A DNA stretch of 64,000 nt from an uncultured cyanobacterium (GCA_963703315.1 OY969811.1:4128001-4192000), one strand, 5' to 3'; positions 13,215 to 47,407 are shown, counted from the stretch's first letter. Made by a program: numbers and translations. The notes: generated from the sequence alone by a model not told the origin.

Positions 13215-13451
13215 ATGACACCATATCCTGCAAATCAGCTACTTAAAAAATTTGGAAATGCTGTTACAGCATTATCTAAGAAGTTGCCGAAGAATGAAAG
13301 AGATAATGTAAATCAGTCATGGCAAGTGGTTGAAAGAGCTATTAAAGTTAATAGTGCTGATTTTGAGGCTTTAGCCGAATATAAATCTCTGATTATCTAT
13401 CTAAGAACATCTGGTTTAATAGATCCTAATGGTAGAGAATGGGAACCTTAA
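13215..13451 (+). CDS. Small hypothetical protein in AT-rich patch
   Basis: AAGGA Shine-Dalgarno upstream of ATG; 78 aa. Confidence 0.55.
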   Translation: MTPYPANQLLKKFGNAVTALSKKLPKNERDNVNQSWQVVERAIKVNSADFEALAEYKSLIIYLRTSGLIDPNGREWEP

Positions 13452-13482
13452 ATTTATCCAAACTAAGTGAAAACTCTATGTC

Positions 13483-14295
13483 TTAGAGCGTTTTTTGAAT
13501 CATTTCTATTAATTTGTCAAGATACTCCTTGATAATATTTATTGATTTATCACTTGGGATTAGTAAATTTTTGTTTTTACCACCTAAAATTGTATCTCTA
13601 ATATATCTTATAGCTTTTTTATGAGTATTGATATTTGCAGTAGAATCTAAAATCATTTCTACTGGCATATATCTTCTGTATTTAATACTACAAACAAGCC
13701 AAGCTCTTAAATATGCATAAATAGAATCAGACAATTCTGGATATCTATCATCATTATTTTTAATACTTAATCCTCTTGATAAGGTAGTTCTAACAACATC
13801 TTTGAGCTTATCTGTTTTATCAGCTTCTAATAGATCTTCTAAAGCTTGATCATAAAGTTCTTCTAATTCACCATCCTGTCTAACTTTTATATCAATTTCT
13901 AGTCTAGAGATTAGATATTCTTCATTAGATATTATATTGTCAAGGTTTAATGATTTTACGGATTGATAGATTTTCTGTAAAGTATATAAAAGATATAGTT
14001 CCTGTCTTTTTAAAATATCAACTATATCTTTATCAAACTCTTTTCTAGCATTTTCAGTGTCTGATTCTATCCATTCTTCAATGAGAGGCTTAACAAGCTT
14101 ATCGGACAGTAAATAAGTTGAAATTAAACCTACTAATATTGACAAAACAATCGGAGGTATCAATAAGGTTTGAGGAATAATTGAACTTACTGCGAATAAG
14201 CTTAATCCAAGGACAAAAGAGATTATATTAATTATTAATATCCGAATAATCGTTACATCTTTATTGATTTTTTTCTTCTTAGATTTGCTAGTCAT
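13483..14295 (-). CDS. Hypothetical two-TM membrane protein with helical soluble domain, AT-rich
   Basis: 270-aa ORF in very AT-rich DNA; two hydrophobic segments near the N-terminus. Confidence 0.65.
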   Translation of the reverse strand: MTSKSKKKKINKDVTIIRILIINIISFVLGLSLFAVSSIIPQTLLIPPIVLSILVGLISTYLLSDKLVKPLIEEWIESDTENARKEFDKDIVDILKRQELYLLYTLQKIYQSVKSLNLDNIISNEEYLISRLEIDIKVRQDGELEELYDQALEDLLEADKTDKLKDVVRTTLSRGLSIKNNDDRYPELSDSIYAYLRAWLVCSIKYRRYMPVEMILDSTANINTHKKAIRYIRDTILGGKNKNLLIPSDKSINIIKEYLDKLIEMIQKTL

Positions 14296-14724
14296 AATTA
14301 TTTATTCTGTTGTCAATATAAATTTTTTATGATTCTTTACTTACCAAGATTACTCTTCTAAAATATTTTTATGACTATAATCAACTCTGCTATTTATCTA
14401 TTAAGCTGATTGTGTATATCCTGATTGTGTATATAATTATCAACTTTAAGGTTTTATAAAGTAAATTCTTGCATTAATTTTACTTATATTGACATATAGC
14501 AAACTATTTTGTAAATCCCTATTTTTACCAATAATGATTACTCCACTTTTTTATATAAATACTAGATCAAGTCATATCAAGAGGATGTAATGATTTGTAA
14601 CAAAATAGCCAGTTATCTACTATTTTATTATGACCCTAAACACTTATTTGCGACTCAATCTACTTGCATTATCGAGTTTAGGATTTCGTAAATTAGCTTC
14701 TTGAATTGCTTCTAGCTATTGATA

Positions 14725-15666
14725 TCAATTTATCAAATAAGTTTGTCGATAACTTCTATCTGCCATATATAAAGCCTCTGATTCAGTCCATTGCTTCATC
14801 GGTTCCAAATCTGCAACCATCACAAACTGGCTTAAATATAAATTATCCCCTAGAACATTAGTGATAACTTTGGCGATCGCCTTGCAGCAACTTTGCGGAT
14901 AACGTACTACTTGCTCCTCACTAAAGCGAATCACAATCCAATTTTTATCAAGGAAAAAGTTATTCCGCTTGGTATCTTTGCTAGCCCCAACAAAGTGAGT
15001 AGGAACTTTGTTGTTATAGGCATAAGGCTCATCAATCTCTATGTCAATGTATAGATTTACAGACTTGTCGATATAGACAAAATCAGGACTGTAATGATGT
15101 TTAAAATTTGGAATATTGAGGGTAAGCCCGCGTTTTACTTTGTCCTTGAAATAGTGGTTGAGATATGCATAAAACTTAGCTTCTGAGAATCCTGTTGGAG
15201 CCTTACTATTTCCTCCATCATTGGGTTTGGTTTGCCTGAGTATCCGCAAAAGCTCTAATTTTCGATACGAAGCTATATTTTCGTGACTATGGATATGCTT
15301 GATCTGTTGCTCATATTCTCGTTTCGCCTGTTGATAGGACTGCAATAACTTTGGATATTTCTTTACTTCATCATCGTGCGCTCGCTTGCGCTGTGGAAAA
15401 CTCTGATTCATTGACCATGCGAGATAAGCGATCGCAACAGTGCTTAGGGCGATCGCGGCAATACCTAGCCAAATATGAAAAAATGCAAGCGCTAATGACG
15501 CGACAAAGCCAACAATCATCCATCTTGTTAATACCTTTCTGTCATAGATTTCTGGTAGTGAAGATGGTTTTTGTGGTGCTGTCTCTGTAAATACAGGTAC
15601 AGGTGGATTGATACTTTGGGCGCGTTGTATGGAGCTAGGAATTAAGATGATTGGATAGGTAGATAT
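14725..15666 (-). CDS. Membrane-anchored DUF559/Vsr-like PD-(D/E)xK nuclease-fold protein; frame open upstream of the called ATG (15519) to an ATA at 15666
   Basis: YSPDFVY..IDIEIDEPY..H..D.KRNNFFL.KNWIVIRFSEEQV; TM hairpin; in-frame extension ISTYPIILIPSSIQRAQ. Confidence 0.65.
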   Translation of the reverse strand: MSTYPIILIPSSIQRAQSINPPVPVFTETAPQKPSSLPEIYDRKVLTRWMIVGFVASLALAFFHIWLGIAAIALSTVAIAYLAWSMNQSFPQRKRAHDDEVKKYPKLLQSYQQAKREYEQQIKHIHSHENIASYRKLELLRILRQTKPNDGGNSKAPTGFSEAKFYAYLNHYFKDKVKRGLTLNIPNFKHHYSPDFVYIDKSVNLYIDIEIDEPYAYNNKVPTHFVGASKDTKRNNFFLDKNWIVIRFSEEQVVRYPQSCCKAIAKVITNVLGDNLYLSQFVMVADLEPMKQWTESEALYMADRSYRQTYLIN

Positions 15667-18550: not shown

Positions 18551-19261
18551 TTAAGAAGGTCTTTGTAAAGCAGCACATCTTGTAGACCTAATGCGTTGCT
18601 CCGATCGCGGATCGATTTTGAGATTAATGGTTTGATGCTTACTGCGATCAACTAAAGGAAACTGAGTTTGCCAATTGCTAATAATGTGAAAATAATTTTC
18701 AGCATCCTCTAGACAGTATTCATAGATTTCATTAAGAATTGTTTCATAACCCCTCTCTTTTCGTAAGACTTTAATGCCATTACGAAAAACATAATATCCT
18801 TTGATTCTTTTATCAATCGGAATTCCTAAATATGCAAATAGATTATTTAAGCCTTGATTGAGTCCTGTACGCTGGCTTGTTCTCTGTAAATCTAGAATTC
18901 TAATACTATCAATTTTAGGAATAAAGTCTAAAGCATCTATTCTTTGACGTAAACAAAACATATCGCTAGTTGACAAACCATATCCTACAAAATACTTACC
19001 CCGCAAGCTATGTAAGTCATGCAATATATCTTGAATTATTTTCTTCTCTTGTGTACTAGATTCAATAAATTGGATTTTGATGTATTGTTCATTACTATCT
19101 TCTAAAATGCGCGTAAGTGTGTAACCAAAAATCTTTTGTACTGAACCATTTTTCTGAAAGTCGCGACACCATTCTAAGTCTAAAAAAACAAGGTCGTAGA
19201 TTGAACCATCGTAAAAATTGTTTATATATTGACTTGGAATCTTAAATTCCTTTTTATACAT
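18551..19261 (-). CDS. RNase H-fold DEDDy-type 3'-5' exonuclease-like protein (RNase_H_2/YprB-like)
   Basis: ExoI FLDLEW, ExoII-like VGYG..SD, LDL, ExoIII YCLED; AT-rich. Confidence 0.65.
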   Translation of the reverse strand: MYKKEFKIPSQYINNFYDGSIYDLVFLDLEWCRDFQKNGSVQKIFGYTLTRILEDSNEQYIKIQFIESSTQEKKIIQDILHDLHSLRGKYFVGYGLSTSDMFCLRQRIDALDFIPKIDSIRILDLQRTSQRTGLNQGLNNLFAYLGIPIDKRIKGYYVFRNGIKVLRKERGYETILNEIYEYCLEDAENYFHIISNWQTQFPLVDRSKHQTINLKIDPRSEQRIRSTRCAALQRPS

Positions 19262-19499
19262 AGAGTTTGGCTTAGTGGAGGGCTAGGAGAAGGGCTAGCG
19301 AGTAGAATAAACTACTATCTATATATGTATACATCCTAACCGTAATATTCAGTTTGCGATCGCTCACGTTGCACAAATTAAAATCTCCAAAATAGTGACG
19401 ATACTTCACACTAGGATTCTGCGATTTCATCAAGAAAGTGGCACGGCTTCGCCGTGCCACTTTCTTGATTTGTGTCCTCTATGTTTACTTTAGGGGTTT

Positions 19500-20192
19500 C
19501 TAGATTTCAAAATTAAATCCATTTTGCTTGAGTTGAATATATTTAATCTCATCAAATTGATAAAGCTTTGCAGCACGATGGGCTACACCTTGCTCGACTT
19601 CGCCAGTATCGATCAGCAAATCCATATTCAAGATTTTTTTGCGAAAGTTACGTTTGTCAAGCTGGCGATCGCAGACAGTTTCATATAGTTTTTGCAGTTG
19701 TGACAGGGTGAAGTTTTTAGGTAATAACTCAAAACCAATTGGTTCATAACGGATTTTGCCCCGCAGTCGGGCGATCGCCTTTTGCAAAATCTGCTCATGG
19801 TCAAAAGCTAACTGGGGAATTTTGGCAATCGGAAACCATTCAGCTTCACGCGCATCGGTGGCGGCTTGAATTTTTTGATCTACCAAATTAATCAGGGCAT
19901 AATAGGCGACTGTAACCGTGCGATCGCGAGGATCTCGCCCCAAATCACCAAAGGTATATAGCTGCTCTAGATAAACATCCTGTATCCCTGTTTCCTCTTG
20001 CAGTTCTCGCAAAGCCGCCTGTTCCAAAGTTTCCTCCATTCGCACAAATCCCCCTGGGATCGCCCATTGTCCTTGAAATGGCGGAATATCGCGTTTAATC
20101 AGCATAATTTTCAGCTCTAGCTCCGCATCTAGTCCAAAAACGATGCAGTCAACAGTTAAGGCGGGTCGAGGGTATTCGTAGGTGTGGGACAT
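19500..20192 (-). CDS. nrtR: NrtR-family regulator (Nudix ADP-ribose sensor plus C-terminal winged HTH)
   Basis: [10 protein letters not shown], Nudix box [68 protein letters not shown]. Confidence 0.92.
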
Positions 20193-20244
20193 AGGTTTTC
20201 ATGTATGCAAAGTTGCTGCTACGCAGCAACTTTGCAAGTGATAG

Positions 20245-20273
20245 TTGACATAGTGTAAAAATAACACTATAGT
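20245..20273 (+). promoter_or_regulatory. Consensus sigma70 promoter for the PP2C-vWA operon
   Basis: TTGACA (20245-20250), 17-bp spacer, TATAGT (20268-20273). Confidence 0.8.
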
Positions 20274-20296
20274 AGTTTGTGTAGTTTATACACTAT
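20250..20296. promoter_or_regulatory. Two tandem 21-bp NrtR-type operators (GT-N7-AC)
   Basis: ATAGTGT-aaaaata-ACACTAT (20250-20270, perfect arms) and TTTGTGT-agtttat-ACACTAT (20276-20296). Confidence 0.8.
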
Positions 20297-20302
20297 ATCG
20301 CT

Positions 20303-21184
20303 ATGCAAGGACAAGTAGACATTCTCGATGAGCGATCGCTAGAAAGTTCTGACTTCCCTAGTCAGGACTTAGTAAATCAAGCTTTAGCAAATCAAGCTTT
20401 AGCAAATCAATTTGAATATGCAAGCGGTTCAATCATCGGGAGGAATCATGTTCTCGCTGGCAAAAATAATCAGGATGCTTATCAAATTTCTGTAAATAAG
20501 AGATTTATTACTGCGGTGGTGTGCGATGGCTGCGGCAGTGGTAAACATAGCGAAGTTGGTGCAAAGTTAGGCGCAAAGTTAGTGATTGGGGCAATTAGCA
20601 ATCTTCTTAATCAAGATGCTGAAAACCTATCTAATCCTGAGTTCTGGGATCTTGTTAAGCTTAATTTGTTGCAGAAGTTAAAGGATTTTGTAGCGCTTAC
20701 CAATGGTGATATGGAATTTGTAAATAATTATTTGTTGTTTACGATTCTTGGTGCAGTAATTACAGAACGCGAAACGATCGCTTTCTCAATGGGTGATGGC
20801 GCGATCGCTATTAATGGCAAACTAAATCAAATTCCTGCCTATCCTGACAATGCACCGCCCTATCTTGCCTACGGATTGTATAAACCTGAAGCAATTAATT
20901 TCGAGATACGCGATCGCCTCCCCACTTGCGAATTAGAATCCCTTCTCATCGCTACCGATGGAATTGATGATTTAATCGCAGTTGAAGATATCGCCCAGTT
21001 CTGGCAAAAAGATCGCTATTTCAAAAATCCTGACGCAGTGCGAAGAAAACTAGCCATGCTCAATCGGGAGGAAGTCAAACCTGATTGGAATAGAAAAGAG
21101 TTAACTAAGCGATCGGGCGTACTTTCTGATGATACGAGTTTGGTGGTGATACGAAGACCCTCACCCCCAGCCCCTCTCCCATAG
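20303..21184 (+). CDS. PP2C-like protein phosphatase (YegK/PphC-like)
   Basis: G.NH..NNQDA, VCDGCGSG, GDG, IATDG, DDTSLVV. Confidence 0.88.
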   Translation: MQGQVDILDERSLESSDFPSQDLVNQALANQALANQFEYASGSIIGRNHVLAGKNNQDAYQISVNKRFITAVVCDGCGSGKHSEVGAKLGAKLVIGAISNLLNQDAENLSNPEFWDLVKLNLLQKLKDFVALTNGDMEFVNNYLLFTILGAVITERETIAFSMGDGAIAINGKLNQIPAYPDNAPPYLAYGLYKPEAINFEIRDRLPTCELESLLIATDGIDDLIAVEDIAQFWQKDRYFKNPDAVRRKLAMLNREEVKPDWNRKELTKRSGVLSDDTSLVVIRRPSPPAPLP

Positions 21185-21200
21185 GGCGAGGGGAGCAAGA
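21155..21200 (+). repeat. 46-bp dispersed hairpin repeat, copy 1; supplies the PP2C C-terminus and stop codon
   Basis: agaccctcacccccagcccctctcccatagggcgaggggagcaaga; 42/46 identical to 23745-23790 by eye. Confidence 0.85.
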
Positions 21201-21224
21201 ATATTTTTACTTTTACCTTTTTAC

Positions 21225-22007
21225 TTGAAAACTATGTTAGGCGCAATTGTCGGTGATATTGTCGGTTCCATTTACGAGTTTAATAATCATCGCTCAAAAG
21301 ACTTCCCTCTCTTTGGTGAAGGATGTGATTTTACAGATGATACGGTTTTGACTGTGGCAGTTGCTGATTGCTTGTTGAATCAAGGTAATTATGCAGAATA
21401 CATCAAAAACTATGCTCGCAAATATCCCAATCGTGGCTATGGTGGACGCTTTGCTCAATGGATACGCTTTGAAAGTATGGAACCATACAATAGCTGGGGT
21501 AATGGCTCAGCCATGCGCGTCAGTGCCGTAGGATTTGCCTACAATGATTTGGAAGCCGTGATGAATGAGGCAAAGCGATCGGCAGAAGTCACTCACAATC
21601 ATCCCGAAGGAATTAAGGGAGCTCAGGCAACGGCTGTCGCGATTTATATGGCGCGTCAAGGTCAGAGCAAAGAGCAAATAAAAACAGCGATCGCTAAGTC
21701 TTTTAAATATGATTTAGATAGAACCTTAGACGAGATTCGTCCCATTTATAAGTTTAATGAATCATGTCAAGCAACCGTACCCGAAGCAATTATTGCCTTT
21801 TTAGAATCAACGGATTTTGAAGATGCGATTCGGAATGGAATTTCTCTAGGTGGTGATAGCGATACCCTGACTTGTATCACGGGCGGCATAGCTGAAGCTT
21901 TTTATGGTGGTGTACCAAAAGATATTGCTGACAAAGCTTTGAGTTATTTGCCACCACTCATTCGTGAAGTAGTTGAAGAATTTAGAACGAGGTATAACTT
22001 ATGTTAG
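21225..22007 (+). CDS. ADP-ribosylglycohydrolase (DraG/ARH family), paralog 1; ATG 21234 is the probable start
   Basis: GAIVGDIVGSIYE, TDDT, SWGNGSAMR, THNHPEG, GGDSDT. Confidence 0.92.
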   Translation: MKTMLGAIVGDIVGSIYEFNNHRSKDFPLFGEGCDFTDDTVLTVAVADCLLNQGNYAEYIKNYARKYPNRGYGGRFAQWIRFESMEPYNSWGNGSAMRVSAVGFAYNDLEAVMNEAKRSAEVTHNHPEGIKGAQATAVAIYMARQGQSKEQIKTAIAKSFKYDLDRTLDEIRPIYKFNESCQATVPEAIIAFLESTDFEDAIRNGISLGGDSDTLTCITGGIAEAFYGGVPKDIADKALSYLPPLIREVVEEFRTRYNLC

Positions 22008-22789
22008 GCGCGATCGCTGGTGATATTATCGGTTCGATTTACGAAGTTATTCCCATGAAGCGGAAGAACTTTAAACTATTCTCTTTTGGTAGTCATTTTA
22101 GCGATGATACCGTTCTTACTTATGCCGTTGCTCATTCCATTCTCACGGGAACCAGCTATGCGGGTAACTTCAAAAAATGTTTTTGGCGCTATCCCTTAGC
22201 AGGATTTGGACAGAGGTTTACTTGCTGGGCAATGCGAAATGGCAAGGAAGGCTATAACAGTTGGGGTAATGGTGCAGCGATGCGGGTGAGTCCGATCTCA
22301 TGGGCTTATGATAATCTCGAAGATGTCCTCAAGGAAGCCGAACGCTGCACCGCCACAACTCACAATCATCCTGAAGGTATTAAAGGTGGACAGGCAACGG
22401 CGGCGGCAATTTTCCTAGCCCGTCAGGGCAGAACTAAGACAGAAATCCGCGACTATATCGAGCAAACTTTCCATTACGATTTGCATCGCACTATCGATGA
22501 AATTCGCCCCAATTATAAGTTTGAGGTTTCCTGTCAAAAAAGTGTTCCTGAAGCAATCATCGCCTTTTTAGAATCAATAGATTTTGAAGATGCAATTCGC
22601 AATGCCGTATCTCTCGGTGGTGATAGCGACACGATCGCCGCAATTACAGGAAGCATTGCTGAAGCCTTTTATGGGGGTGTGCCTCATGCGATCGCGGTAC
22701 AGGTGTGGAAGAAACTAGATCGGCGAATTAGGAACACAGTGCTTGAGTTTAGTGGAACTTACAATTTGCCTTGCTATTTGAAATATTAG
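22001..22789 (+). CDS. ADP-ribosylglycohydrolase (DraG/ARH family), paralog 2
   Basis: GAIAGDIIGSIYE, SDDT, SWGNGAAMR, THNHPEG, GGDSDT; overlaps paralog 1 by 7 nt. Confidence 0.92.
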   Translation: MLGAIAGDIIGSIYEVIPMKRKNFKLFSFGSHFSDDTVLTYAVAHSILTGTSYAGNFKKCFWRYPLAGFGQRFTCWAMRNGKEGYNSWGNGAAMRVSPISWAYDNLEDVLKEAERCTATTHNHPEGIKGGQATAAAIFLARQGRTKTEIRDYIEQTFHYDLHRTIDEIRPNYKFEVSCQKSVPEAIIAFLESIDFEDAIRNAVSLGGDSDTIAAITGSIAEAFYGGVPHAIAVQVWKKLDRRIRNTVLEFSGTYNLPCYLKY

Positions 22790-22799
22790 GCGCAAAATC

Positions 22800-24656
22800 A
22801 TGGATATCTATCTCAATCAAAAGCGGATTAAAATCAATCCTAAAAATGCGATCGGCAAGGGTGGCGAAGCAGATATCTATGACCTCAAAAACGGCAAGGT
22901 TCTCAAACTCTTCAAAACCGCCGATCATCCAGATTATCAATTACTGCCACAGGAACAATTAGCGGCAAAATCGAGATTAGCGCTCCATCAGCAAAAATTA
23001 CCTGTTTTCCCGCAAAATCTGCCAGTAAGAGTGATTAAACCCGAAACTTTAGCAACAGATCAACAGGGCGCAATACTGGGCTATGCAATGCCTTTTTTGC
23101 AAAATACAGTACCACTTTTGAAATATAGCGATCGCAATTATCGCCAAACTAACGCTATCTCGCAGCAATCTGTAACTAATCTATTTCAAGATCTCCATGA
23201 ATCAGTTCTGAAAATCCATCAAGCAAATGTCACAATTGGTGATTTCAATGATTTGAATTTGCTGGTTTCTCAAAATCAAGTTTATTTGATTGATGCTGAT
23301 TCTTTCCAATTTGGACAGTTCCCTTGTCAGGTATTTACAGCAAGGTTTGTTGATCCGATATTGTGCGATCGCAGTGCTAATCAACCCATCCTCACCAGTT
23401 CTCACAATCCTGATTCCGATTGGTACGCCTTCACCGTGATGCTGATGCAGAGCCTTCTCTACGTCGATCCCTATGGCGGCGTATATAAGCCCAAATCGCA
23501 ATCTTCGCAAATCCCTCATAGTGCCAGACCTTTGCAAAGAATTACGATTTTCCATCCTGATGTCCGTTATCCCAAACCTGCCATTTCCTACAAAGTTCTA
23601 TCCGATGATTTGTTACATCACTTTCATAATTGCTTTGAAAAAGACTGGCGTGGAGATTTTCCCAAACCTCTGCTCGAATCAATGCGTTGGACAAAATGTA
23701 ACCAATGTGGAATCGAACATTTAAGGACTACCTGCCCAATTTGTAGACCCTCACCCCTAGCCCCTCTCCCACAGGGAGAGGGGAACAAGATGGGGAAAAC
23801 GTCTTGTAAGGTTTTGCAAGTCTTCCAAACTGAAGGCATAATCCTTCAAGTCACTTTACAAAACAATTCTCTCAATTATCTCTATCACGCTAACCACGAA
23901 TTCAAACGCGAAGACAACACAGTTTTATTATCAGGAGAACTCGATGCTAATACTCAATTTGCAATCTTTGGTAAGTCCACAATCGTTACTAAGCAAGGTA
24001 AAGCAATTACTCTCACGCAAGGACAACCGCAAGCGATCGCCACCGAGCTAATCCGAACCAATTCTTTCTCTCGTTACTGGATTGATCAAGGTCAATTACT
24101 CCGCGATGGCAAGCTAGGGAATGAATATATCGGCGATATTCTCGAAGGACAAACTCAGTTCTGGGTTGGTGAAACTTTCGGCTTTGGCTTTTATCGGGCA
24201 GGTGCGCTTAGCGTCGCTTTTACCTTTGATGCTAAGCGTGCAGGAATTTGCGATCGCCTAAATCTCCCCCCAATCCAAGGAGAGCTAATCGATGCAAATT
24301 GCACCTTTAGTAATGACCTCTGCTGGTTCTTCACCATCACTCAAGAGCAAGGTAGCATCATCCATCGAGTTTCCGTATTGCGTCCAACTGGCGAGTTAGT
24401 AGCAACTCATGCCGCACCGAAAGGGAATCTGGCATGGTTGACGAATATTCATGGTGGCAGTGCGATCGCTAATTGGCTATTCGTTCCCACCGATGAAGGT
24501 ATTGCTAGAGTTGAGGCACAAAATGGACAAATTATGATTACGAAAACTTTTCCCGAAACGGAACCCTATGTAGATAGCGGCTGTTCTCTAATCGTTAACT
24601 CACAAGGTATCTATGTGATTCACTCACAGAAGATTTTACAGTTACAATTGTCCTAG
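22800..24656 (+). CDS. YegI-like Ser/Thr kinase-fold protein with Zn ribbon and beta-rich C-terminal domain
   Basis: IGKGGEADIY Gly loop, VLKLF, IGDFNDLNLLV, IDADSFQF, CNQC..CPIC. Confidence 0.82.
   Translation: MDIYLNQKRIKINPKNAIGKGGEADIYDLKNGKVLKLFKTADHPDYQLLPQEQLAAKSRLALHQQKLPVFPQNLPVRVIKPETLATDQQGAILGYAMPFLQNTVPLLKYSDRNYRQTNAISQQSVTNLFQDLHESVLKIHQANVTIGDFNDLNLLVSQNQVYLIDADSFQFGQFPCQVFTARFVDPILCDRSANQPILTSSHNPDSDWYAFTVMLMQSLLYVDPYGGVYKPKSQSSQIPHSARPLQRITIFHPDVRYPKPAISYKVLSDDLLHHFHNCFEKDWRGDFPKPLLESMRWTKCNQCGIEHLRTTCPICRPSPLAPLPQGEGNKMGKTSCKVLQVFQTEGIILQVTLQNNSLNYLYHANHEFKREDNTVLLSGELDANTQFAIFGKSTIVTKQGKAITLTQGQPQAIATELIRTNSFSRYWIDQGQLLRDGKLGNEYIGDILEGQTQFWVGETFGFGFYRAGALSVAFTFDAKRAGICDRLNLPPIQGELIDANCTFSNDLCWFFTITQEQGSIIHRVSVLRPTGELVATHAAPKGNLAWLTNIHGGSAIANWLFVPTDEGIARVEAQNGQIMITKTFPETEPYVDSGCSLIVNSQGIYVIHSQKILQLQLS
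23745..23790 (+). repeat. 46-bp dispersed hairpin repeat, copy 2, in frame inside the kinase
   Basis: agaccctcacccctagcccctctcccacagggagaggggaacaaga translated as RPSPLAPLPQGEGNK. Confidence 0.85.
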
Positions 24657-24690
24657 CAATATTTTTAGCAATATATTCAGGTGATCTGCC

Positions 24691-25287
24691 ATGTCCTATA
24701 GCGAATTTACCTTAGAGTCAGTTCAGACAGCCTTTGACCTCACGATTGCTGAACGTGCCAATTTACTAAACGATTCCCCTTTAGCAGAATCCAGTGAATT
24801 TCTCAAACAACTTCTCGAAGAATTTGTGCCATTAGCGCTGGCAATGAATACCGAAAAAGCGCGATCAGAATTAATCATTGCGCCGATTTTAGTAGAAGTT
24901 CGCAAAAAATACTTAGACAAAGCAAGTTTATTCTCAGGTGTGGAACTCAACATTGATCGCGATTCTGGATTAAATGGTGTTTGTGACTTCTTATTAAGCC
25001 GATCGCCTTCACAACTAATGCTCAAAGCACCTGTTGTAGTTGTAGTTGAGGCAAAAAAGGAGAATATCAACGGAGCATTAGGACAATGTATTGCCGAAAT
25101 GTGGGCAGCGAAACTTTTCAATCAGCAACATGAGAATGATATTTCTGTAATTTATGGAGCCGCCACCACTGGCAACGATTGGAAGTTTTTACGCCTAAGC
25201 GATCGCCTTGTAGAGATTGATTTAACTGAGTATCAACTCAGTAATATAGACAAAATTCTAGGTATTCTTTCTCTCTCTTTTCAATAA
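24691..25287 (+). CDS. Cyanobacterial protein with restriction-endonuclease-like (HsdR_N-like PD-(D/E)xK) motifs
   Basis: GVCDFLL..VVVEAKK..GQCIAEM..YGAATTGNDWKF. Confidence 0.65.
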   Translation: MSYSEFTLESVQTAFDLTIAERANLLNDSPLAESSEFLKQLLEEFVPLALAMNTEKARSELIIAPILVEVRKKYLDKASLFSGVELNIDRDSGLNGVCDFLLSRSPSQLMLKAPVVVVVEAKKENINGALGQCIAEMWAAKLFNQQHENDISVIYGAATTGNDWKFLRLSDRLVEIDLTEYQLSNIDKILGILSLSFQ

Positions 25288-25311
25288 TTTTAAAACTGGA
25301 GAAACATTAAA

Positions 25312-26364
25312 ATGACTACTCAAATTGTTACACAACTTCCCATTCCTGCTTTTTTCGATCGCCACAAAGTCGGATCAGTATGGCGTGTCCCTTACCAAGA
25401 CCGCGCTAACCAAGCTGAAGCATGGGCTAAACAACATGGTATTGTCCCTGCCGCAAAGGATCGTAAGAAAATTTGTTTAATGGCGATCGATGTACAGAAT
25501 ACCTTTTGTATTCCCGATCATGAGCTATTTGTAGGTGGGCGTTCTGGTACTGGTGCGATCGAGGATAATGTGCGGCTGTGCGAGTTTATCTATCGTAACT
25601 TGCACCACATCAGCGAGATTGCGCCCACGATGGATACTCATACCGCCATGCAAATTTTCCATCCCATCTTTTGGGTGAATGATTCAGGAGAACATCCGAT
25701 TCCCAATGCTACTTCCATCACTTTAGAAGATGTGCAGCAAGGCAAGTGGAAAGTAAATCCTGCGATCGCCTATAGTCTTGCTAAAGGTAACTACATGGCA
25801 ATCCAGCGTCACGCATTGCATTATGTGCAGAAGCTTAGCGATGAAGGTAAGTTTCCACTTACGGTTTGGGCATATCACTCCATGCTCGGCGGTATCGGTC
25901 ATGCGCTAGTTTCTTCCGTCGAAGAAGCGATGTTCTTTCACAATATTGCGCGGCATAGTCAGACTAATTTCGAGATTAAAGGCGGTAATCCTCTCACTGA
26001 GAACTATTCTGTATTGCGTCCTGAAGTGATGGATGGAGCCGACGGCAGACCGATCGCACAGAAGAATACGCGCTTCTTGCAAAGACTATTGGAATTTGAC
26101 GCTGTAATTATTGCAGGTCAAGCCAAGAGTCATTGCGTTGCATGGACAATTCAAGATTTGCTCAGCGAAATCCTTGCCCATGATCCTAAACTCGCAAAGA
26201 AAGTCTATCTGTTGGAAGATTGTACTTCGCCAGTGGTTGTTCCGAATGTGGTCGATTACACCGATCAAGCAGATGCTGCCTTTCAGCGATTTGCTGATGC
26301 AGGTATGCACTTGGTCAAATCCACTGATGCAATGGAAAGTTGGGCGGATCTCAATCTCTCTTAA
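25312..26364 (+). CDS. Isochorismatase-superfamily cysteine hydrolase, nicotinamidase (PncA)-like, long form
   Basis: [21 protein letters not shown] catalytic Cys, LLEDCTSPV; NrtR context. Confidence 0.8.
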
Positions 26365-26374
26365 ATTTATCTCC

Positions 26375-26555
26375 GTAGGGGCAGAGCATTCCTGCCACAA
26401 TTTATAAATTTTTAGATTCGCTCAATTTGGGAATGCTCTGCCCAACACCTAACAACGCAGGGACAATTTATCGGCAAAAGCAAGAGGGTTGAGCATTTGC
26501 GAATCGAGGTTTCTGTGGTGTGTTCCAAATTGTGACGCAAATGCTCAACCCCTAC
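26375..26555. repeat. REP/REPIN-like doublet with GTAG..CTAC ends
   Basis: GTAGgggcagagcattcc..ggaatgctctgccc and gggttgagcatttgcg..cgcaaatgctcaacccCTAC. Confidence 0.7.
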
Positions 26556-26571
26556 AGATCAAATGCATATC

Positions 26572-26616
26572 ACCAATTACCAATTACCAATTACCTATTA
26601 CCAATTACCTATTACC
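26572..26616. repeat. Heptamer tandem repeat (CCAATTA/CCTATTA, about 6 units), STRR-like
   Basis: accaattaccaattaccaattacctattaccaattacctattacc directly before ATG 26617. Confidence 0.85.
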
Positions 26617-27390
26617 ATGACTAACATTAATGATCTCTTTCAATCTGCTTTAGATGATGGAACCCTTTCCAATGAATCTTTACAAGCACTCACTGTTTAT
26701 GACCTCGGCGCACAAATCCAAGCAGGGCTTGGCATTCATGTTGATGATGTCATGTCTAGCGAAGTTGTGCTAGTAACGATTATGCCCGATGACTCTGGCT
26801 CGATCCAGTACTCAGGAAATGCTCAGGCAGTACGCGGCGGACATAACTCCGTAATTGATGCACTAATATCTTCGCAGCAACAGGACAATATTCTCATTCA
26901 CAATCGCTATTTAAATGGAAATGTTCTCTATCCCTACTGCCCGATCGCACAGGCAATCAGGATGGATTCCAAAAACTACACCCCAAATCAAGGTACACCA
27001 CTTTATGATCAGACGGTAGTGCTACTGGGGACAGTTTTAGCCAAAGCTCAAGAATTTTCGGATAATGGTGTACCAGTTCGCACTGTGACCCTGATTATTA
27101 CCGATGGTGATGATTGCCATTCGATGCGTCATACCGCTAAGGATGTGGCAGCGATCGCCCATGATATGTTGCGGATGGAAAACCATGTGATCGCTGCGAT
27201 GGGTATTGATGATGGCTCTACAAATTTCCGCCAAGTGTTTAAAGATATGGGAATTCGTGATGAATGGATTCTCACACCTGCGAATAGCGATGGCGAAATT
27301 CGCAAGGCTTTTCAGGTATTCTCGCAGTCAGCAATGCGTGTGAGTCAGAGTGCGGCTAACTTTAATTCACTAGGTGGATTTGGTGGTTAG
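26617..27390 (+). CDS. vWA domain protein (TerY/YegL-like)
   Basis: MIDAS DDSGS, GTPLYD, IITDGDD; start moved past the heptamer repeat. Confidence 0.85.
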   Translation: MTNINDLFQSALDDGTLSNESLQALTVYDLGAQIQAGLGIHVDDVMSSEVVLVTIMPDDSGSIQYSGNAQAVRGGHNSVIDALISSQQQDNILIHNRYLNGNVLYPYCPIAQAIRMDSKNYTPNQGTPLYDQTVVLLGTVLAKAQEFSDNGVPVRTVTLIITDGDDCHSMRHTAKDVAAIAHDMLRMENHVIAAMGIDDGSTNFRQVFKDMGIRDEWILTPANSDGEIRKAFQVFSQSAMRVSQSAANFNSLGGFGG

Positions 27391-27416
27391 CAACAAGGGG
27401 CATACGCCCCTTGTTG

Positions 27417-28904
27417 CTAGTCGATCTCGTTCGCAAAAACTGCCGTGATCGCCTGTTTCGCATCGGTGCGAAATTCCATAACATTCACACGGCTCAGGAA
27501 AAATACTGCTAGTAGCATTACTGCGGCTTCACAGATAAATACAAAGCTATAGGCAAAGGTACTGGACTCGCTACATATCTTTTTGCCAATATCTAGCACT
27601 ACGCCGCCTGAGACAGTGGCAAGACCTCTGGCGATCGCTTGAGATAGTCCCCAAGCACCGATAAAGGTTCCCGCAGTTTCTGCCGCCGTGAGGTCAAGCA
27701 TCAAACTCAAAGCTCCTGAAGTGGTAATTCCAGAAGCAAATCCAAATAGAGTTAAAGCAGCTTGTAAGACTGGAATTTTTTGGGTAAATCCTGCAATTAA
27801 TAATAAGGCACAACTACCCGCAACTAAGTAACAACCTAGTTTGGTGGAATTTTGCTTGCCAAGGCGCGGCACAATCAGGAATCCTGAAGAACTCAACCCA
27901 ATTAAGGTTCCTGTGCCAAAAGCGGCGTTAAGCTGTGTGGTTTTGCAAATGCTCATCCCAAATACAGCACCGCCAAAGGGTTCCATAATTGCATCTTGCA
28001 TGAAAATGCCAATGGTCATCATTAACAAGAATGAGAAGAATAAACCTGTTTGTTTGCTTGCCGTCAATACCCGTAAAGCTTTGCCAAGACTAAGTTTATC
28101 CTCTGTAGCGGTGGTTCCATTGAGAATGTGATTTTCAGCAACGCGCAACTTATAACGAGAATACTTCTGCTCAATGCCATAGGTAGCAAACAGAGATAAA
28201 CCAACTACCGCCGCAGGAATGACTATGAAGACAAAATTAAGTGTTTTTTGTAACTGGGCAAGGCGATCGCCATCAGCATAAATAGAAATATTACTAGGCG
28301 GTGCTTCTGAACATTGCAACAGCTTAGAAACCACGATTGCACCAATCACAATCCCCACCATCAACATCGACCAGACGATTCCCACTAGTTTAGAGCGATC
28401 CTCTTCGTCGGAAACATCCACTAACATCGCGGCAAAAGGTGTGGAACTCAGGCTAATTGACATTCCATACAGCCCGAACATCGCGCCCAAGGCGATCGCC
28501 CAGCCATAGGTGACACCATTCCAGCCAATCTCATGCACACTGCGTCCCAATTGCCACATGACCTGTGTTGTGAAAAAGGCGATGATCGCGAAGATCACGG
28601 CTCCAATCCAGACATAGCCTGAGCGATGGGTTCCAAATATCGTTTTGGCATCGGAGGTCTGCCCAAACCAAACTCGCGTCGGGGATGACACAAACAGAGG
28701 CAGCGCAATCAGCATAGCAGTTAGGGTAGCAGGAATCGCTAGTTCGTTGATCATCACACGGTTCAGCAGCCCTGCGGTCAGCAAAGACATGATTCCTAAA
28801 CCCATCTGAAATAGACCGATCCGAAACATTTGGATCAGTGGCAGTTTAGGCGGGTGTTGTGGTTGAGACTCATCTAAATCTGCGGTATCGATTTGGTTAT
28901 TCAT
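27417..28904 (-). CDS. PucC/BCD-family MFS (chlorophyll delivery) transporter
   Basis: FRIGLFQMGLGIMSLL..LNRVMINEL, R.WFGQ.SD, QDAIMEPFGG.VF, AGTFIGAWG. Confidence 0.9.
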   Translation of the reverse strand: MNNQIDTADLDESQPQHPPKLPLIQMFRIGLFQMGLGIMSLLTAGLLNRVMINELAIPATLTAMLIALPLFVSSPTRVWFGQTSDAKTIFGTHRSGYVWIGAVIFAIIAFFTTQVMWQLGRSVHEIGWNGVTYGWAIALGAMFGLYGMSISLSSTPFAAMLVDVSDEEDRSKLVGIVWSMLMVGIVIGAIVVSKLLQCSEAPPSNISIYADGDRLAQLQKTLNFVFIVIPAAVVGLSLFATYGIEQKYSRYKLRVAENHILNGTTATEDKLSLGKALRVLTASKQTGLFFSFLLMMTIGIFMQDAIMEPFGGAVFGMSICKTTQLNAAFGTGTLIGLSSSGFLIVPRLGKQNSTKLGCYLVAGSCALLLIAGFTQKIPVLQAALTLFGFASGITTSGALSLMLDLTAAETAGTFIGAWGLSQAIARGLATVSGGVVLDIGKKICSESSTFAYSFVFICEAAVMLLAVFFLSRVNVMEFRTDAKQAITAVFANEID

Positions 28905-30076: not shown

Positions 30077-32215
30077 ATGATGTCCAACAAAACCCCCAAA
30101 CCATTATATATTCTGCTTATTAGCATTCATGGATTGATTAGAGGTCATAATCTAGAATTGGGTCGAGACGCAGATACGGGAGGTCAAACAAAATATGTTG
30201 TGGAATTGGCTAAAGCTCTTGCTAAACAGCCCCATGTAGAGCGCGTTGATTTGGTTACAAGACTGATCATTGATGCTGCTGTCGATGCTGACTATGGCTT
30301 AGAGACGGAATCTTTAGCCGAAAATGCTCAGATCGTGCGGATTGAAGCAGGGTCTGAAGGCTACATTCCTAAAGAAGAATTATGGAGTCATCTGGATGGC
30401 TTTACCGATCGCCTGTTTGCTTGGTTGCTTGAGCAGCCACGTTTGCCTGATGTAATCCACAGCCACTATGCCGACGCGGGATATGTGGGCGTGCGACTTT
30501 CCCATTTAACAGGTTTACCCCTAATCCATACGGGACATTCATTAGGACGGGATAAGATGCGAAGATTGCTGGGGTCAGGAATGCCCCTAGAACAGATCGA
30601 AGAACGCTATCATATGCTCCAGAGGGTCAGTGCTGAAGAAGATACCTTAAGTAATGCGGACTTGGTGATTACTAGCACGCGCAATGAAATTGAAGATCAG
30701 TATGAACTTTACGACTATTACACGCCTGAAAAAATGGCGATCATCCCCCCAGGGACAGATTTAGAGCAGTTCCATCCCCTGACTGATGATCAGAAAGCGA
30801 TCGCTTTTCAAGAGGTTCTCGCCAAGTTTCTCAATAATCCTGAGAAGCCGATTATTTTGGCGTTATCACGCCCCGATCAGCGTAAAAATATCGTTACTCT
30901 TCTGGAAGCCTATGGTCAATCGCCTCGTTTACAAGAATTAGCTAATCTAGTGATTGTGGCAGGTAATCGAGAGGATATTCGGGAACTCAATGAGGGAGCG
31001 CAAAATGTTTTAACAGAATTATTGCTGGTGATGGATTGCTATGATCTGTATGGTTTGGTAGCTTTGCCGAAGCACCATAGTTCTGGTGAAGTTGCCGATA
31101 TTTATCGATTAGCGGCTAAGTTCAAGGGTGTGTTTGTGAATCCTGCTCTCACTGAGCCTTTTGGATTAACATTATTGGAGGCGGCGGCAAGTGGATTGCC
31201 ATTAGTTGCCACCGAAAATGGGGGGCCAGTGGATATTATTGGTAATTGTCAGAATGGATTACTAGTTGATCCTTTGAATGAGAATGCGATCGCCGAGGCT
31301 TTATTGCAGATTCTGGAAGATGCAGATCTATGGCAGCAATTTTCCGAAAATGGATTAAAAAATGTTGCCAAATTCTATTCATGGGAGGCTCACGCTCAAA
31401 CCTATTTGCAAAAAATTCAACCGCTCATATTACAACAGGAACCTTTACCAAAGCCAACATTCTCCGCAAAAGCAGGACAATATCGTAAGCGGGCGATTTT
31501 CACGGCGATCGACAATACCTTATTGGGGGATGCGGAGGCATTGGCGCAATTTATCCAACTTGTCCGCCAACAGCATCGGAGATTTCTATTTGGCATCGCC
31601 ACAGGTCGGCGTTTAGATTCAGTTCTCAAGATTTTAAAAACCTATGGGATTCCCACCCCCAATGTTTTGATTACCAGTTTAGGCACAGAGGTTTATTATC
31701 CTCCTCTATACAATGCGGATATTGCGTGGAATCACCATATCGATCACGGGTGGACACCGCAAGTATTACGGCGTATTATCGATTCCTTACCAGGGATTAC
31801 CCCACAGTCGAAGGATCAGCAGAGTCGGTTTAAGGTTTCCTATTACTACGATGCCAATATTGCCCCGTCAATGGAGGAGATTTTGACCCTAGTGCGTCAA
31901 CAGGAATTGTCTGTGAATACAACGCTCTCCTTTGGTCAATATCTGGACTTTGTGCCTGCCAGAGCCTCTAAGGGGCTTGCTCTTCGCTATGTTGCTAGAC
32001 AGTGGAACATTCCTCTAGAGCAGGTTTTGGTGAATGGTGGATCGGGTGGCGATGAAGATATGCTGCGTGGCAATACTTTGGGCGTGGTCGTTGATAATCG
32101 TCACCGTGAAGAGCTATTGAATTTGAGTGATAGCGATCGCGTATATTTTGCCGATAGCGCTCATGCTGGCGGCATTTTAGAGGCGATCGCCCACTATGAT
32201 TTCTTTAATTTATAG
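30077..32215 (+). CDS. sps: Sucrose-phosphate synthase, bidomain (GT4 plus degenerate HAD)
   Basis: LISIHGLIRGHNLELGRDADTGGQTKYV, HSHYADAG, TGHSLGR, NPALTEPFGLTLLEA. Confidence 0.95.
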   Translation: MMSNKTPKPLYILLISIHGLIRGHNLELGRDADTGGQTKYVVELAKALAKQPHVERVDLVTRLIIDAAVDADYGLETESLAENAQIVRIEAGSEGYIPKEELWSHLDGFTDRLFAWLLEQPRLPDVIHSHYADAGYVGVRLSHLTGLPLIHTGHSLGRDKMRRLLGSGMPLEQIEERYHMLQRVSAEEDTLSNADLVITSTRNEIEDQYELYDYYTPEKMAIIPPGTDLEQFHPLTDDQKAIAFQEVLAKFLNNPEKPIILALSRPDQRKNIVTLLEAYGQSPRLQELANLVIVAGNREDIRELNEGAQNVLTELLLVMDCYDLYGLVALPKHHSSGEVADIYRLAAKFKGVFVNPALTEPFGLTLLEAAASGLPLVATENGGPVDIIGNCQNGLLVDPLNENAIAEALLQILEDADLWQQFSENGLKNVAKFYSWEAHAQTYLQKIQPLILQQEPLPKPTFSAKAGQYRKRAIFTAIDNTLLGDAEALAQFIQLVRQQHRRFLFGIATGRRLDSVLKILKTYGIPTPNVLITSLGTEVYYPPLYNADIAWNHHIDHGWTPQVLRRIIDSLPGITPQSKDQQSRFKVSYYYDANIAPSMEEILTLVRQQELSVNTTLSFGQYLDFVPARASKGLALRYVARQWNIPLEQVLVNGGSGGDEDMLRGNTLGVVVDNRHREELLNLSDSDRVYFADSAHAGGILEAIAHYDFFNL

Positions 32216-32335
32216 CGTTTCTTAGCCTAGAGCAGATGTTTGCCCACCAAAGGCGGGCAAACATCTGCTCTAGGCTGAAAGTTTCCCCTCTTTGGGTGGG
32301 GAAACTTTCCCCACTAACTAATACAATTGTGACCT

Positions 32336-33181
32336 ATGCAGAAATTATTGATTTGTACTGACCTTGACCGTACTCTATTACCCAATGGAACTCAACCAGA
32401 ATCTCCTGAAGCGCGAACCATATTTACCCGTTTAGTCAGCCGCCCCGAAGTCTGCTTAGTATATGTGAGCGGTAGAAATCTTACATTAGTTCAAGAAGCA
32501 ATCCAAGAATATGATTTGCCAGCACCGCATTGGATAGTTGGTGATGTCGGTAGCACGATGTATCAATTTGATGGCGATCGCTGGAAATCTTGGCAAAGCT
32601 GGACACAGCAGATTGCGGTTGATTGGCGTGGTTTAAGCGCTGTAGATTTAGAGCCTTGGTTTAGCGATTTAGCGGAAATATCGCATTTAGTCTTGCAAGA
32701 ACCCGATCAACAAAGCCGTTTTAAACTTAGTTACTATCTGCCATTGGATATGGAAAAAGATGCTTTGCAGCAGTACATTAGCGATCGCCTTGAAGAACAA
32801 AATATTGCTGCAAGTTTGATTTATAGCGTTGATGAAGCTAAGGAAATTGGACTACTAGATATCTTGCCAGCCCATGCCACCAAACTCCATGCAGTGGAAT
32901 TTCTGATGGATCAATTGGATTTTGATCACACTAATACAGTTTTTGCAGGTGACAGTGGTAATGATCTACCATTACTGATTAGTCCTGTGCCTTCTATTTT
33001 GGTCGCCAATGCCCATTTCGATGTAATTGCTCAATCTCAACAACAAGCTAAAGAACTAGGAAACACGCATAGATTATATTTGGCTGAGGGTGGCTTTTTG
33101 GGGATGAATGGGAATTACAGCGCAGGGATTTTAGAAGGAATTGTCCATTATTATCCAGACACACAAAAATGGATAGAATGA
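32336..33181 (+). CDS. spp: Sucrose-phosphate phosphatase (HAD-IIB)
   Basis: TDLDRTLL, YVSGR, K.SYY, LLDILP, FAGDSGND; follows sps. Confidence 0.85.
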   Translation: MQKLLICTDLDRTLLPNGTQPESPEARTIFTRLVSRPEVCLVYVSGRNLTLVQEAIQEYDLPAPHWIVGDVGSTMYQFDGDRWKSWQSWTQQIAVDWRGLSAVDLEPWFSDLAEISHLVLQEPDQQSRFKLSYYLPLDMEKDALQQYISDRLEEQNIAASLIYSVDEAKEIGLLDILPAHATKLHAVEFLMDQLDFDHTNTVFAGDSGNDLPLLISPVPSILVANAHFDVIAQSQQQAKELGNTHRLYLAEGGFLGMNGNYSAGILEGIVHYYPDTQKWIE

Positions 33182-33239
33182 TGTGCCGCGCAAAGCGCGG
33201 CACATCATTCTATAAGCAAACATATTTTAGGAAAACTCC

Positions 33240-47355: not shown

Positions 47356-47371
47356 CAATCCTAGTCTATCA

Positions 47372-47407
47372 GGATTTTCCAATGAGCATATACTCATTGG
47401 AAAATCC
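47372..47407 (+). terminator. Strong stem-loop after the first operon gene (partial terminator or mRNA stabiliser)
   Basis: ggattttccaatgag-catata-ctcattggaaaatcc, 15-bp perfect stem without a U tract. Confidence 0.65.

Follow-up and report, generated by a model that had tools for sequence, protein, structure and literature searches.

Positions 19,500 to 27,390 of a 64,000-nucleotide stretch of DNA from an uncultured cyanobacterium (GCA_963703315.1 OY969811.1:4128001-4192000; hereafter the window) hold an operon that we read as serving nicotinamide salvage, inducible by ADP-ribose and with a phosphorylation switch as an optional part. We give this reading a probability of about 0.55. The conserved core consists of a PP2C phosphatase, a Ser/Thr kinase, a predicted nicotinamidase and a vWA protein, plus a regulator of the NrtR family. 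A nuclease-fold gene in the same run is probably a passenger, and the ADP-ribosylglycohydrolases (ARHs) are recurrent accessories. An initial annotation of this DNA had described an ARH-centred defence circuit; the emphasis should move from there to a nicotinamidase with an optional kinase switch.

Results

A predicted long-form nicotinamidase in the operon

The protein encoded at 25312-26364 is, we strongly infer, a divergent long-form nicotinamidase. Single-sequence searches of PDB, Pfam, NCBIfam and PHROGs returned nothing for it; an alignment profile alone succeeded. The first PDB matches of this profile (73 rows) are yeast Pnc1 (E 1e-9), Acinetobacter PncA and Mycobacterium PncA, and five named nicotinamidases are among the six best. 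D60, K223 and C275 align with Pnc1/PncA and are kept in 71-72 of 73 rows; we take them to be the Asp-Lys-Cys triad of nicotinamidase catalysis. The metal site D108, H110 and H189 (D-x-H, W-P-x-H) is kept in 70, 72 and 73 of the 73 rows, respectively. Profile matches and conserved residues thus bear out the nicotinamidase-like gene of the initial annotation. The window protein has no match to PF00857 at E 0.1 (some relatives do, weakly), and its 350 aa compare with about 180-235 aa in the best-matching solved nicotinamidases. It is 94-99% identical to Pseudanabaena copies, by which we assign the window to a Pseudanabaena-like cyanobacterium.

Gene content, order and orientation were as first described, coordinates included: nrtR on the minus strand and, divergent from it, the genes for PP2C, two ARHs, kinase, a PD-(D/E)xK protein, amidase and vWA on the plus strand. 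Judged by sequence, the genes are real and their catalytic motifs intact. From PP2C through the amidase the intergenic gaps are -7 to 49 nt; 252 nt separate the amidase from vWA. The predicted start of ARH1 is the ATG at 21234, and that of vWA is probably the ATG at 26617, downstream of a heptamer-repeat leader. Pfam confirmed NUDIX with NrtR_WHD, PP2C_2 and two copies of ADP_ribosyl_GH. The kinase scores under the Pfam cut-off, and among the window proteins scanned the amidase and vWA had no relevant Pfam or NCBIfam match. The features are, in window coordinates:

19500-20192, minus strand: nrtR2, operon-linked NrtR paralog (Nudix plus winged helix; Pfam NUDIX and NrtR_WHD), Nudix signature intact
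20245-20273, plus strand: predicted sigma-70 promoter (-35 at 20245-20250, spacer of 17 nt, -10 at 20268-20273)
20250-20270, no strand: predicted operator 1, 21-bp palindrome GTGT-N7-ACAC in the promoter spacer (matrix match 26.0 bits)
20276-20296, no strand: predicted operator 2, second palindrome, across the predicted transcription start (matrix match 23.4 bits)
20303-21184, plus strand: PP2C-type Ser/Thr phosphatase, PphC (YegK) homologue, core (PP2C_2, E 3.8e-20)
21234-22007, plus strand: ADP-ribosylglycohydrolase 1 (short ARH), accessory (PF03747; TDDT and GDSDT motifs)
22001-22789, plus strand: ADP-ribosylglycohydrolase 2, tandem duplicate, 59% identical, accessory (PF03747)
22800-24656, plus strand: YegI-type Ser/Thr kinase, Zn ribbon (C300-C315), linker and beta-propeller, core (hhalign, AlphaFold2)
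24691-25287, plus strand: PD-(D/E)xK-fold protein of a multicopy family, accessory, probably a passenger (PADLOC PDLC01472)
25312-26364, plus strand: predicted long-form nicotinamidase, PncA-like, 350 aa, core (alignment profile against PDB)
26379-26551, no strand: two inverted repeats in the nicotinamidase-vWA spacer, common cyanobacterial intergenic repeats
26560-26615, no strand: heptamer repeat in the same spacer, a common cyanobacterial intergenic repeat type
26617-27390, plus strand: TerY/YegL-like vWA with intact, invariant metal ion-dependent adhesion site (MIDAS), core (hhalign to YegL)
27388-27419, no strand: 14-bp perfect hairpin between vWA and a convergent pucC-like gene (repeat search)

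The hairpin at 27388-27419 is likely the end of the operon; a terminator scan did not pick it up.

Some relatives of the nicotinamidase have unusual architectures. P0103 consists of two tandem long-form nicotinamidase domains, each with a weak PF00857 match. Six proteins carry, in front of the nicotinamidase and fused to it, a domain of about 230 aa that has no annotation and is also found alone (L171:9248-9985 and proteins P0003, P0007, P0008, P0009, P0017, P0031 and P0151-P0201). It has 51 matches, including records named Lokiarchaeota and Obscuribacterales, and its invariant residues are Arg24, Arg43, Arg173, Gly188-x-Gly190 and Glu203. Searches of ESM Atlas and profile searches of Pfam and PDB gave no assignment. 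The domain is possibly an enzyme; the Arg/Glu pattern brings an ADP-ribosyltransferase to mind, which is our unsupported guess.

The kinase, phosphatase and vWA triad

The initial annotation recognised a TerY-P triad of the yegL-yegK-yegI type, and profile alignment (hhalign) to the E. coli proteins upholds it, with 94.6% for YegL, 96.4% for PphC and 99.3% for YegI, Zn ribbon included. In PP2C, D58, D75-G76, D219-G220 and D276-D277 are invariant in 39 rows. In the kinase, K36, D148, N153, D165 and S168 are kept in 39-40 of 40 rows. YegI must autophosphorylate the serine that follows its DFG-like motif (10.1101/819920); the equivalent serine of the window kinase is S168, invariant in 40 rows. 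The AlphaFold2 model of the kinase (pLDDT 90.6) has a kinase domain, a Zn ribbon, a loose linker and an all-beta C-terminal half. Its top Foldseek matches are kinase plus WD40 proteins, and the profile likewise finds kinase and beta-propeller. ESM Atlas clusters of the kinase are mostly from Cyanobacteriota, Myxococcota and viruses.

Both the profile and the AlphaFold2 model (pLDDT 91.1) of the vWA protein match vWA domains, and its MIDAS residues D58, S60, S62, T127 and D163 are invariant in 40 rows. The C-terminal helix of the model (225-244) carries S236, S238 and S243, which are present in 97-100% of the 40 rows; the pattern occurs in YegL too. Speculatively, these serines are the best candidate sites for the kinase. 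A TerY-like vWA with MIDAS, a PP2C-like phosphatase and a fusion of Ser/Thr kinase and Zn ribbon, the fusion that defines the group in the available text of PMC11090510, are all present. By its predicted domains the trio is thus a TerY-P member in all three defining parts, outside the kinase-OB anti-phage subtype.

A 46-nt repeat (91% identical) at 21155-21200, the end of the PP2C gene, and at 23745-23790, in the kinase linker, gives the two proteins one common short Pro-rich peptide.

Conservation and distribution in cells

Loci were fetched by their nicotinamidase: the best 80 of 435 genome matches, the best 80 of 583 metagenome matches and all 79 viral matches. The genome loci comprise 34 close and 46 more distant ones (L035-L080), and the neighbour-gene profiles behind all locus counts were built from the fetched loci themselves. 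The full triad stands beside the nicotinamidase in 26 of the 34 close loci (20 of 21 with full flanks), in 16 of the 46 other genome loci and in 70 of the 79 viral loci. The last figure corresponds to 21 of 25 viral lineages at 80% identity grouping, the largest of which has 47 loci. Two gene orders occur, PP2C-kinase-nicotinamidase-vWA and nicotinamidase-vWA-PP2C-kinase, and nicotinamidase and vWA are consecutive core genes in both. The arrangement of nrtR divergent from PP2C-kinase-nicotinamidase-vWA is not due to chance, because it recurs in distant cyanobacteria and in Patescibacteria. The survey of neighbourhood conservation that the initial annotation had proposed thus came out in its favour, with the four genes co-occurring in distant cyanobacteria, Patescibacteria and viruses.

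Operons split into PP2C-kinase and nicotinamidase-vWA halves occur as well. In three of three genomes with a lone nicotinamidase-vWA pair the kinase is located elsewhere. Among 301 Patescibacteria genomes the enzyme is present in five (centre genome included), all five with the four genes and the operator; nrtR adjoins in four of these loci, and NadE, NAD kinase or PncB-like neighbours are found in three.

We surveyed the phylum in one draw of 401 Cyanobacteriota genomes, in which a long query may miss 2-3% of weak matches. The kinase was found in 9 genomes, the nicotinamidase in 111 (a few partial or broken) and PncB in 132. Nicotinamidase and PncB occur together in 108 genomes (108/111 overstates independence, as the genomes are related), nicotinamidase alone in 3, PncB alone in 24 and neither in 266. 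All nine kinase genomes hold the nicotinamidase, eight of them next to the kinase, and 102 of the 111 nicotinamidase genomes have no kinase match. Because both enzymes are found in 108 genomes, the nicotinamidase mostly comes without the triad, and every kinase genome holds it, we read it as an ordinary partner of PncB. It is probably the usual PncA of cyanobacteria, with the triad as an optional extra.

The gene neighbourhoods fit this picture. In other genomes the four genes sit within PncB/Prs/NadE/NadK operons, G088 has PP2C-kinase-nicotinamidase-vWA-NrtR-PncB-Prs-NadE as one run, and in G255 the nicotinamidase lies next to pncB in divergent orientation. The initial annotation had noted the absence of nadM, pncB and nadE from the locus and concluded that this is not a simple salvage operon. 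The absence holds for the locus itself. It does not hold for the genome, which encodes pncB, nadD and nadE elsewhere, and the conclusion is not supported, given the operons just described and the pairing with PncB. The genomic nadE (G000:C1:4120022-4121662) lies about 6 kb ahead of the window start and about 26 kb from the operon.

Within the genus of the window the kinase is present in 32 of 36 genomes, and the same flanking genes surround the operon in most fetched loci. We rejected a recent mobile island: the GC content of the operon is the same as that of its flanks, the site is fixed, and a search of 72,556 plasmid records gave no match. In a tree of 76 rows, copies that lack the triad fall among those that have it, a pattern suggestive of repeated loss. 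This is a quick, midpoint-rooted tree with long viral branches and uneven sampling, from which we claim no direction of transfer.

Predicted control by NrtR

The divergent spacer is 110 nt long and contains two GTGT-N7-ACAC palindromes. The initial annotation, which proposed NrtR control, had not seen these conserved predicted operators, and they support it. The pattern has eight matches in the 4.57-Mb genome; operators 1 and 2 are the only ones in the window. On a matrix trained on 46 sites, all from other genomes, they rank first and second genome-wide (26.0 and 23.4 bits; the third match reaches 17.0), and operator 1 is conserved in related loci. Both overlap the best sigma-70 match of the region, operator 1 in its spacer and operator 2 on the predicted start. 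This promoter is the best of 18 consensus matches in 19300-27500 (11/12 positions); the total equals the shuffle mean, so the informative part is the promoter position only.

Of the 74 genome loci, 55 have a site scoring at least 14 upstream of the unit, a figure that is circular for the loci used in training. The number is 0 of 67 for metagenome loci and 1 of 78 for viral loci, and operators are found in all five Patescibacteria loci. In the split operons G317, G764 and G765 a site stands ahead of each half; in a fourth, G766, the contig end cuts one half. NrtR control of the operon is strongly predicted, because the operators cover the best promoter, are the top hits in the genome and precede both halves of split operons. 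The locus thus has both marks of an NrtR regulon, a Nudix plus winged-helix regulator and a 21-bp GT-N7-AC palindrome that overlaps the promoter. The published GT-N7-AC core and repressor geometry fit the operators, and the same source places pentose genes under the control of some NrtRs (PMC2330246).

nrtR2 scored 179 bits against the NCBIfam equivalog NF050029, which has a cut-off of 400. A second nrtR in the genome, beside nadD, is 39% identical to it. The Nudix box is intact in 40 of 42 operon-linked NrtR copies and not intact in the nadD-linked paralog. Before pncB (L083:900-935, G000:C1) stands a different, imperfect GT-N7-AC palindrome that scores below zero on the operon matrix. It is probably the site of the nadD-linked paralog.

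Accessory genes

ARH1 carries TDDT and GDSDT motifs, and its best PDB matches are ARH3. The PF03747 fold comes with the S/T-D-D and D-x-D-T motifs, which we presume to have metal-site roles. Both ARHs score far under the DraG and Tri1 equivalog cut-offs of NCBIfam. An ARH occurs in 27 of the 34 close genome loci and in 4 of the 46 more distant ones; the count is zero for the 80 metagenome loci, the 79 viral loci and the five Patescibacteria loci. Of 31 ARH-bearing loci, 18 have one copy, 11 have two and 2 have three, in three different positions. The family occurs in 36 of the 401 Cyanobacteriota genomes and adjoins the kinase in 4 of the 9 kinase-bearing ones (coordinates by eye). Being rare or absent outside the close loci, ARH was rejected as part of the core, where the initial annotation had put it; it is a recurrent accessory. 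Pfam found no ADP-ribosyltransferase or sirtuin among the scanned genes of the locus.

L039:8222-11017 is a locus without the triad in which nrtR is divergent from ARH-nicotinamidase, with tandem operators. There the pair of enzymes for NAD products can persist without the switch.

The PD-(D/E)xK protein matches PADLOC PDLC01472 (E 5.6e-49), and its family has nine further copies in the genome (tblastn). It is found in 20 of 34 close loci and in 2 of 46 others, outside the operon there. We rejected it as a dedicated effector because it belongs to a multicopy family and is not conserved within the operon. Downstream of nrtR, window 18551-19261 holds an RNase_H_2 (DEDD-like) gene that is linked to the locus in Pseudanabaena loci only.

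Viral copies

In the group of 47 viral loci the cassette has portal, Mu-F and capsid genes no more than 10 kb away. Record G454 (436 kb, terminal repeats, rated complete) has a terminase large subunit, a clamp loader and a tail fibre, and carries the four genes with a NadD-like neighbour and PncB. Among viral neighbours, in clusters annotated from one member each, NadE occurs in nine loci and PncB in six. RNA-repair genes are common there, and RNA ligases, PNKP, RlaP, poly(A)/CCA polymerase, TROVE-like vWA and PARP-WGR often surround the viral copies. PncB is present in four of five large viral records. None of these five had a Pfam Terminase_6N or Gp23 match above cut-off. A PHROGs search with 85 sampled open reading frames (ORFs) confirmed G454 as phage and supported G455 (RIIB); G453, G456 and G457 were not confirmed by this sample. 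Some of the viral records may be fragments of cellular genomes. In GenBank phages the nicotinamidase had four matches. The pairwise identities of the four proteins are correlated (Spearman 0.73-0.85, 24 viral rows), a value inflated by relatedness.

Two further viral neighbourhoods stand out. A major-vault-protein-like gene (L171:2840-5446; Pfam MVP_shoulder and Vault_3) lies about 1 kb upstream of the cassette in the 436-kb phage record. In L212 (1099-2307) and L180, from large viral records, a WGR-PARP fusion, RNA ligases, PNKP, RlaP and NadE surround the cassette.

Proposed mechanism

NAD+ cleavage yields ADP-ribose and nicotinamide. ADP-ribose would free NrtR from the operators and thereby induce the operon, as it releases other NrtRs from DNA (PMC2330246). 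The predicted nicotinamidase would convert nicotinamide to nicotinate, from which PncB, NadD and NadE, encoded elsewhere, would rebuild NAD+. The ARHs would form an accessory protein-repair arm that strips ADP-ribose off proteins and supplies inducer, and the intact Nudix box may hydrolyse ADP-ribose and so reset the loop.

The most speculative step is that the TerY-P triad regulates the salvage arm. The vWA protein would bind a client via its MIDAS, and the simplest client would be the neighbouring nicotinamidase. The kinase would phosphorylate the S-x-S-x4-S C-terminal helix of vWA, the client or both, with its propeller as the likely docking or sensing part, and PP2C would reverse the modification. 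In integrin vWA domains the corresponding last helix shifts upon ligand binding at the MIDAS; such a movement could tie phosphorylation to the binding of a client. The switch would be dispensable for catalysis, since most cyanobacteria carry the enzyme but no switch. A complex prediction for nicotinamidase and vWA scored 0.00; it was made without controls, and we count it neither for nor against binding.

Several observations weigh against this salvage reading. The triad was not found beside the nicotinamidase in any of 80 metagenome loci, of which only 14 have full flanks, nor in most cyanobacteria, so its client could be something else. No convincing site marks triad-linked nicotinamidases (41 against 104 rows), and six columns that differ look lineage-driven. 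The pairing of nicotinamidase and PncB is weakened by the relatedness of the surveyed genomes and by the 24 genomes with PncB and no nicotinamidase match (15 outside this class). The genome also holds two PF00857 proteins, possible other nicotinamidases, which by resemblance may be biuret-hydrolase-like. Only one of four smaller viral records carries PncB, so salvage is not self-contained in the other three. That nrtR2, and not the nadD-linked paralog, binds the operators is probable from gene linkage. Two natural variants count here as well: L282 (G023), where nrtR is divergent from kinase-nicotinamidase-vWA without an adjacent PP2C, and L285 (G444), with a stop codon within the kinase.

Alternative explanations

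A distinctly less probable account is a conflict system, towards which the initial annotation leaned. Here NAD+ cleavage or ADP-ribosylation by a phage or toxin would induce the operon, and the kinase would be a growth-arrest effector restrained by PP2C. ARH would repair modified proteins, the nicotinamidase would deplete nicotinamide for NARP1/NARP2, and phage copies would counter competitors. TerY-P-like modules with a kinase-OB fusion are reported to be stand-alone anti-phage systems (PMC11090510), and neighbourhoods of ARH, Nudix regulator, vWA and restriction endonuclease (REase) were predicted to act against viral ADP-ribosylation (PMC9503650). Nicotinamide is used by both NARP1 and NARP2 (PMC13464706, 10.64898/2026.01.28.702374). 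The patchy distribution (kinase in 9/401 genomes), the variable number of ARHs (1 to 3) and the portal and capsid genes beside the cassette in the group of 47 viral loci also fit. However, within the genus the kinase is nearly constant (32/36) at a fixed site, between constant flanks in most fetched loci and with their GC content; plasmid matches are lacking among the 72,556 records, and ARH and nuclease are accessory. Phages themselves carry the kinase, and large phages pair the cassette with PncB and NadE, which rebuild NAD+. In L282 the kinase persists without the adjacent PP2C that should restrain it. The PADLOC check proposed earlier gave no match of window proteins to TerY-P-type models (PP2C or STK_OB, E 0.1 / 0.01), a result that excludes that subtype only, since E. 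coli YegL, PphC and YegI miss the models too. The anti-phage leaning is therefore not supported.

It is unlikely, though conceivable, that the genes share only their regulation, the triad being a general stress phospho-switch whose targets lie elsewhere, for instance among translation or RNA-repair proteins, and ADP-ribose a damage cue. Viral copies often lie among RNA-repair genes, operons split into PP2C-kinase and nicotinamidase-vWA halves, the enzyme has no triad-specific residue, and TerY-P triads elsewhere come without nicotinamidase (PMC11090510, PMC4978471). Against this, the nicotinamidase linkage is kept in both gene orders, in cells and viruses and at 33-50% identity, and the enzyme in 9/9 kinase genomes. 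The linkage also persists in viral loci although an operator is found in just 1 of 78, which NrtR co-regulation would not predict. We regard as improbable that the amidase acts on another substrate, such as nicotinamide mononucleotide, nicotinamide riboside or a modified pyridine signal, and that the four genes form a small-molecule signalling device. The length of the protein, its escape from PF00857 and the six fusions to the 230-aa domain with its invariant Arg and Glu would suit such a role. Yet the metal and catalytic residues match nicotinamidases specifically, and the enzyme tracks PncB, which needs nicotinate, and is found in PncB-NadE operons.

Implications

The salvage reading can be extended to a tentative and rather doubtful idea, a phosphorylation-gated nicotinamide valve that phages and their hosts would each use in their conflict over NAD+. 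In phages the cassette would, with PncB, NadD and NadE, form a fourth, deamidating route of NAD+ reconstitution. In cells it would be an ADP-ribose-induced diversion of nicotinamide, plus ADP-ribose via ARH and the Nudix box, from phage NARP1/NARP2 to the host route, with the C-terminal serines of vWA as the switch. If true, this would name the first substrate and the first client for any TerY-P triad.

TerY-P triads are widespread; for YegI, the substrate and the stimulus are listed as open questions (10.1101/819920). The operon supplies a predicted inducer (ADP-ribose), an easily assayed candidate client (the nicotinamidase) and candidate phospho-sites (vWA S236/S238/S243). With these in hand the question becomes directly testable for TerY-P triads. 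The Pfam-invisible nicotinamidase family would feed nicotinate to the cyanobacterial pncB-nadD-nadE route and to phage Preiss-Handler clusters, and phage nicotinate supply bears on how phages rebuild NAD+ after host NADase action. Many phages have these four genes too, so the operon appears to be a hitherto undescribed layer of control over NAD recycling rather than a simple anti-phage weapon.

Elsewhere in the window

The stretch at 13000-15500 is low in GC (0.28-0.30 against about 0.44) and has two ORFs with membrane anchors, of which one has a weakly matching DUF559-like nuclease domain at its end; the stretch looks acquired. Window 44719-61140 holds four to five co-oriented large ORFs (878, 501, 1662 and 2127 aa) with DUF7925, DUF7933 repeats and DUF11, and is probably a surface adhesin or export locus. 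The third of three genes at 30077-35192 has an Alpha-amylase match and is amylosucrase-like; by resemblance we take the first two to encode sucrose-phosphate synthase and its phosphatase.

Comparison with known systems

The operon resembles the E. coli triad yegL-pphC(yegK)-yegI in all three parts: vWA with MIDAS, PP2C and the kinase-Zn ribbon protein are homologous, and the YegI activation serine is kept. It differs in that the nicotinamidase is a fixed fourth gene behind NrtR-type operators, and in that no tie to Ter, restriction or secretion genes was seen in the loci examined. Unlike in the kinase-OB anti-phage type, the C-terminal half of the window kinase is a beta-propeller and not an OB fold. 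In the open literature we found no paper linking a nicotinamidase with a TerY-P triad, although the neighbourhood may already have been mentioned in Anantharaman 2012 or in de Souza and Aravind 2012.

Known NrtR salvage regulons include nrtR-pncA-pncB, the cyanobacterial pncB-nadD-nrtR-nadE and Streptomyces nrtR1-draG (PMC2330246). The operon shares with them the Nudix plus winged helix-turn-helix regulator, 21-bp GT-N7-AC palindromes on the promoter and nicotinamidase and ARH as targets. In contrast to them it has a second paralog, whose Nudix box is intact, and an operator, GTGT-N7-ACAC, unlike the pncB site. In Table 1 of PMC2330246 none of the targets is a kinase, phosphatase or vWA, and pncA is not listed for cyanobacteria.

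The systems centred on ADP-ribosylglycohydrolase (ARG) of Iyer et al. 2022 (PMC9503650) likewise combine an ARH, a Nudix-HTH (helix-turn-helix) regulator, a vWA and an REase-fold gene. The ARG there has no adjacent ADP-ribosyltransferase; among the scanned genes of our locus none was found. There the ARG is the core, whereas here the ARH is accessory and missing in 42/46 distant and 79/79 viral loci. In the available text PP2C is not among the listed phosphatase types, and kinase and nicotinamidase are not members; a term search of the main text and supplement found no mention of nicotinamidase, PP2C, TerY or isochorismatase.

Phage NARP1-3 (PMC13464706, 10.64898/2026.01.28.702374) and the pncB-nadD-nadE (Preiss-Handler) clusters of jumbo phages (PMC11662467) are similar to the viral copies in being clustered, phage-borne genes of NAD+ salvage. 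In the available texts no phage nicotinamidase step is given for these clusters, and a kinase/phosphatase/vWA module is not mentioned either (PMC11662467, PMC13464706). In NARP1-3 nicotinamide is not deamidated, whereas the enzyme of our operon is predicted to do exactly that.

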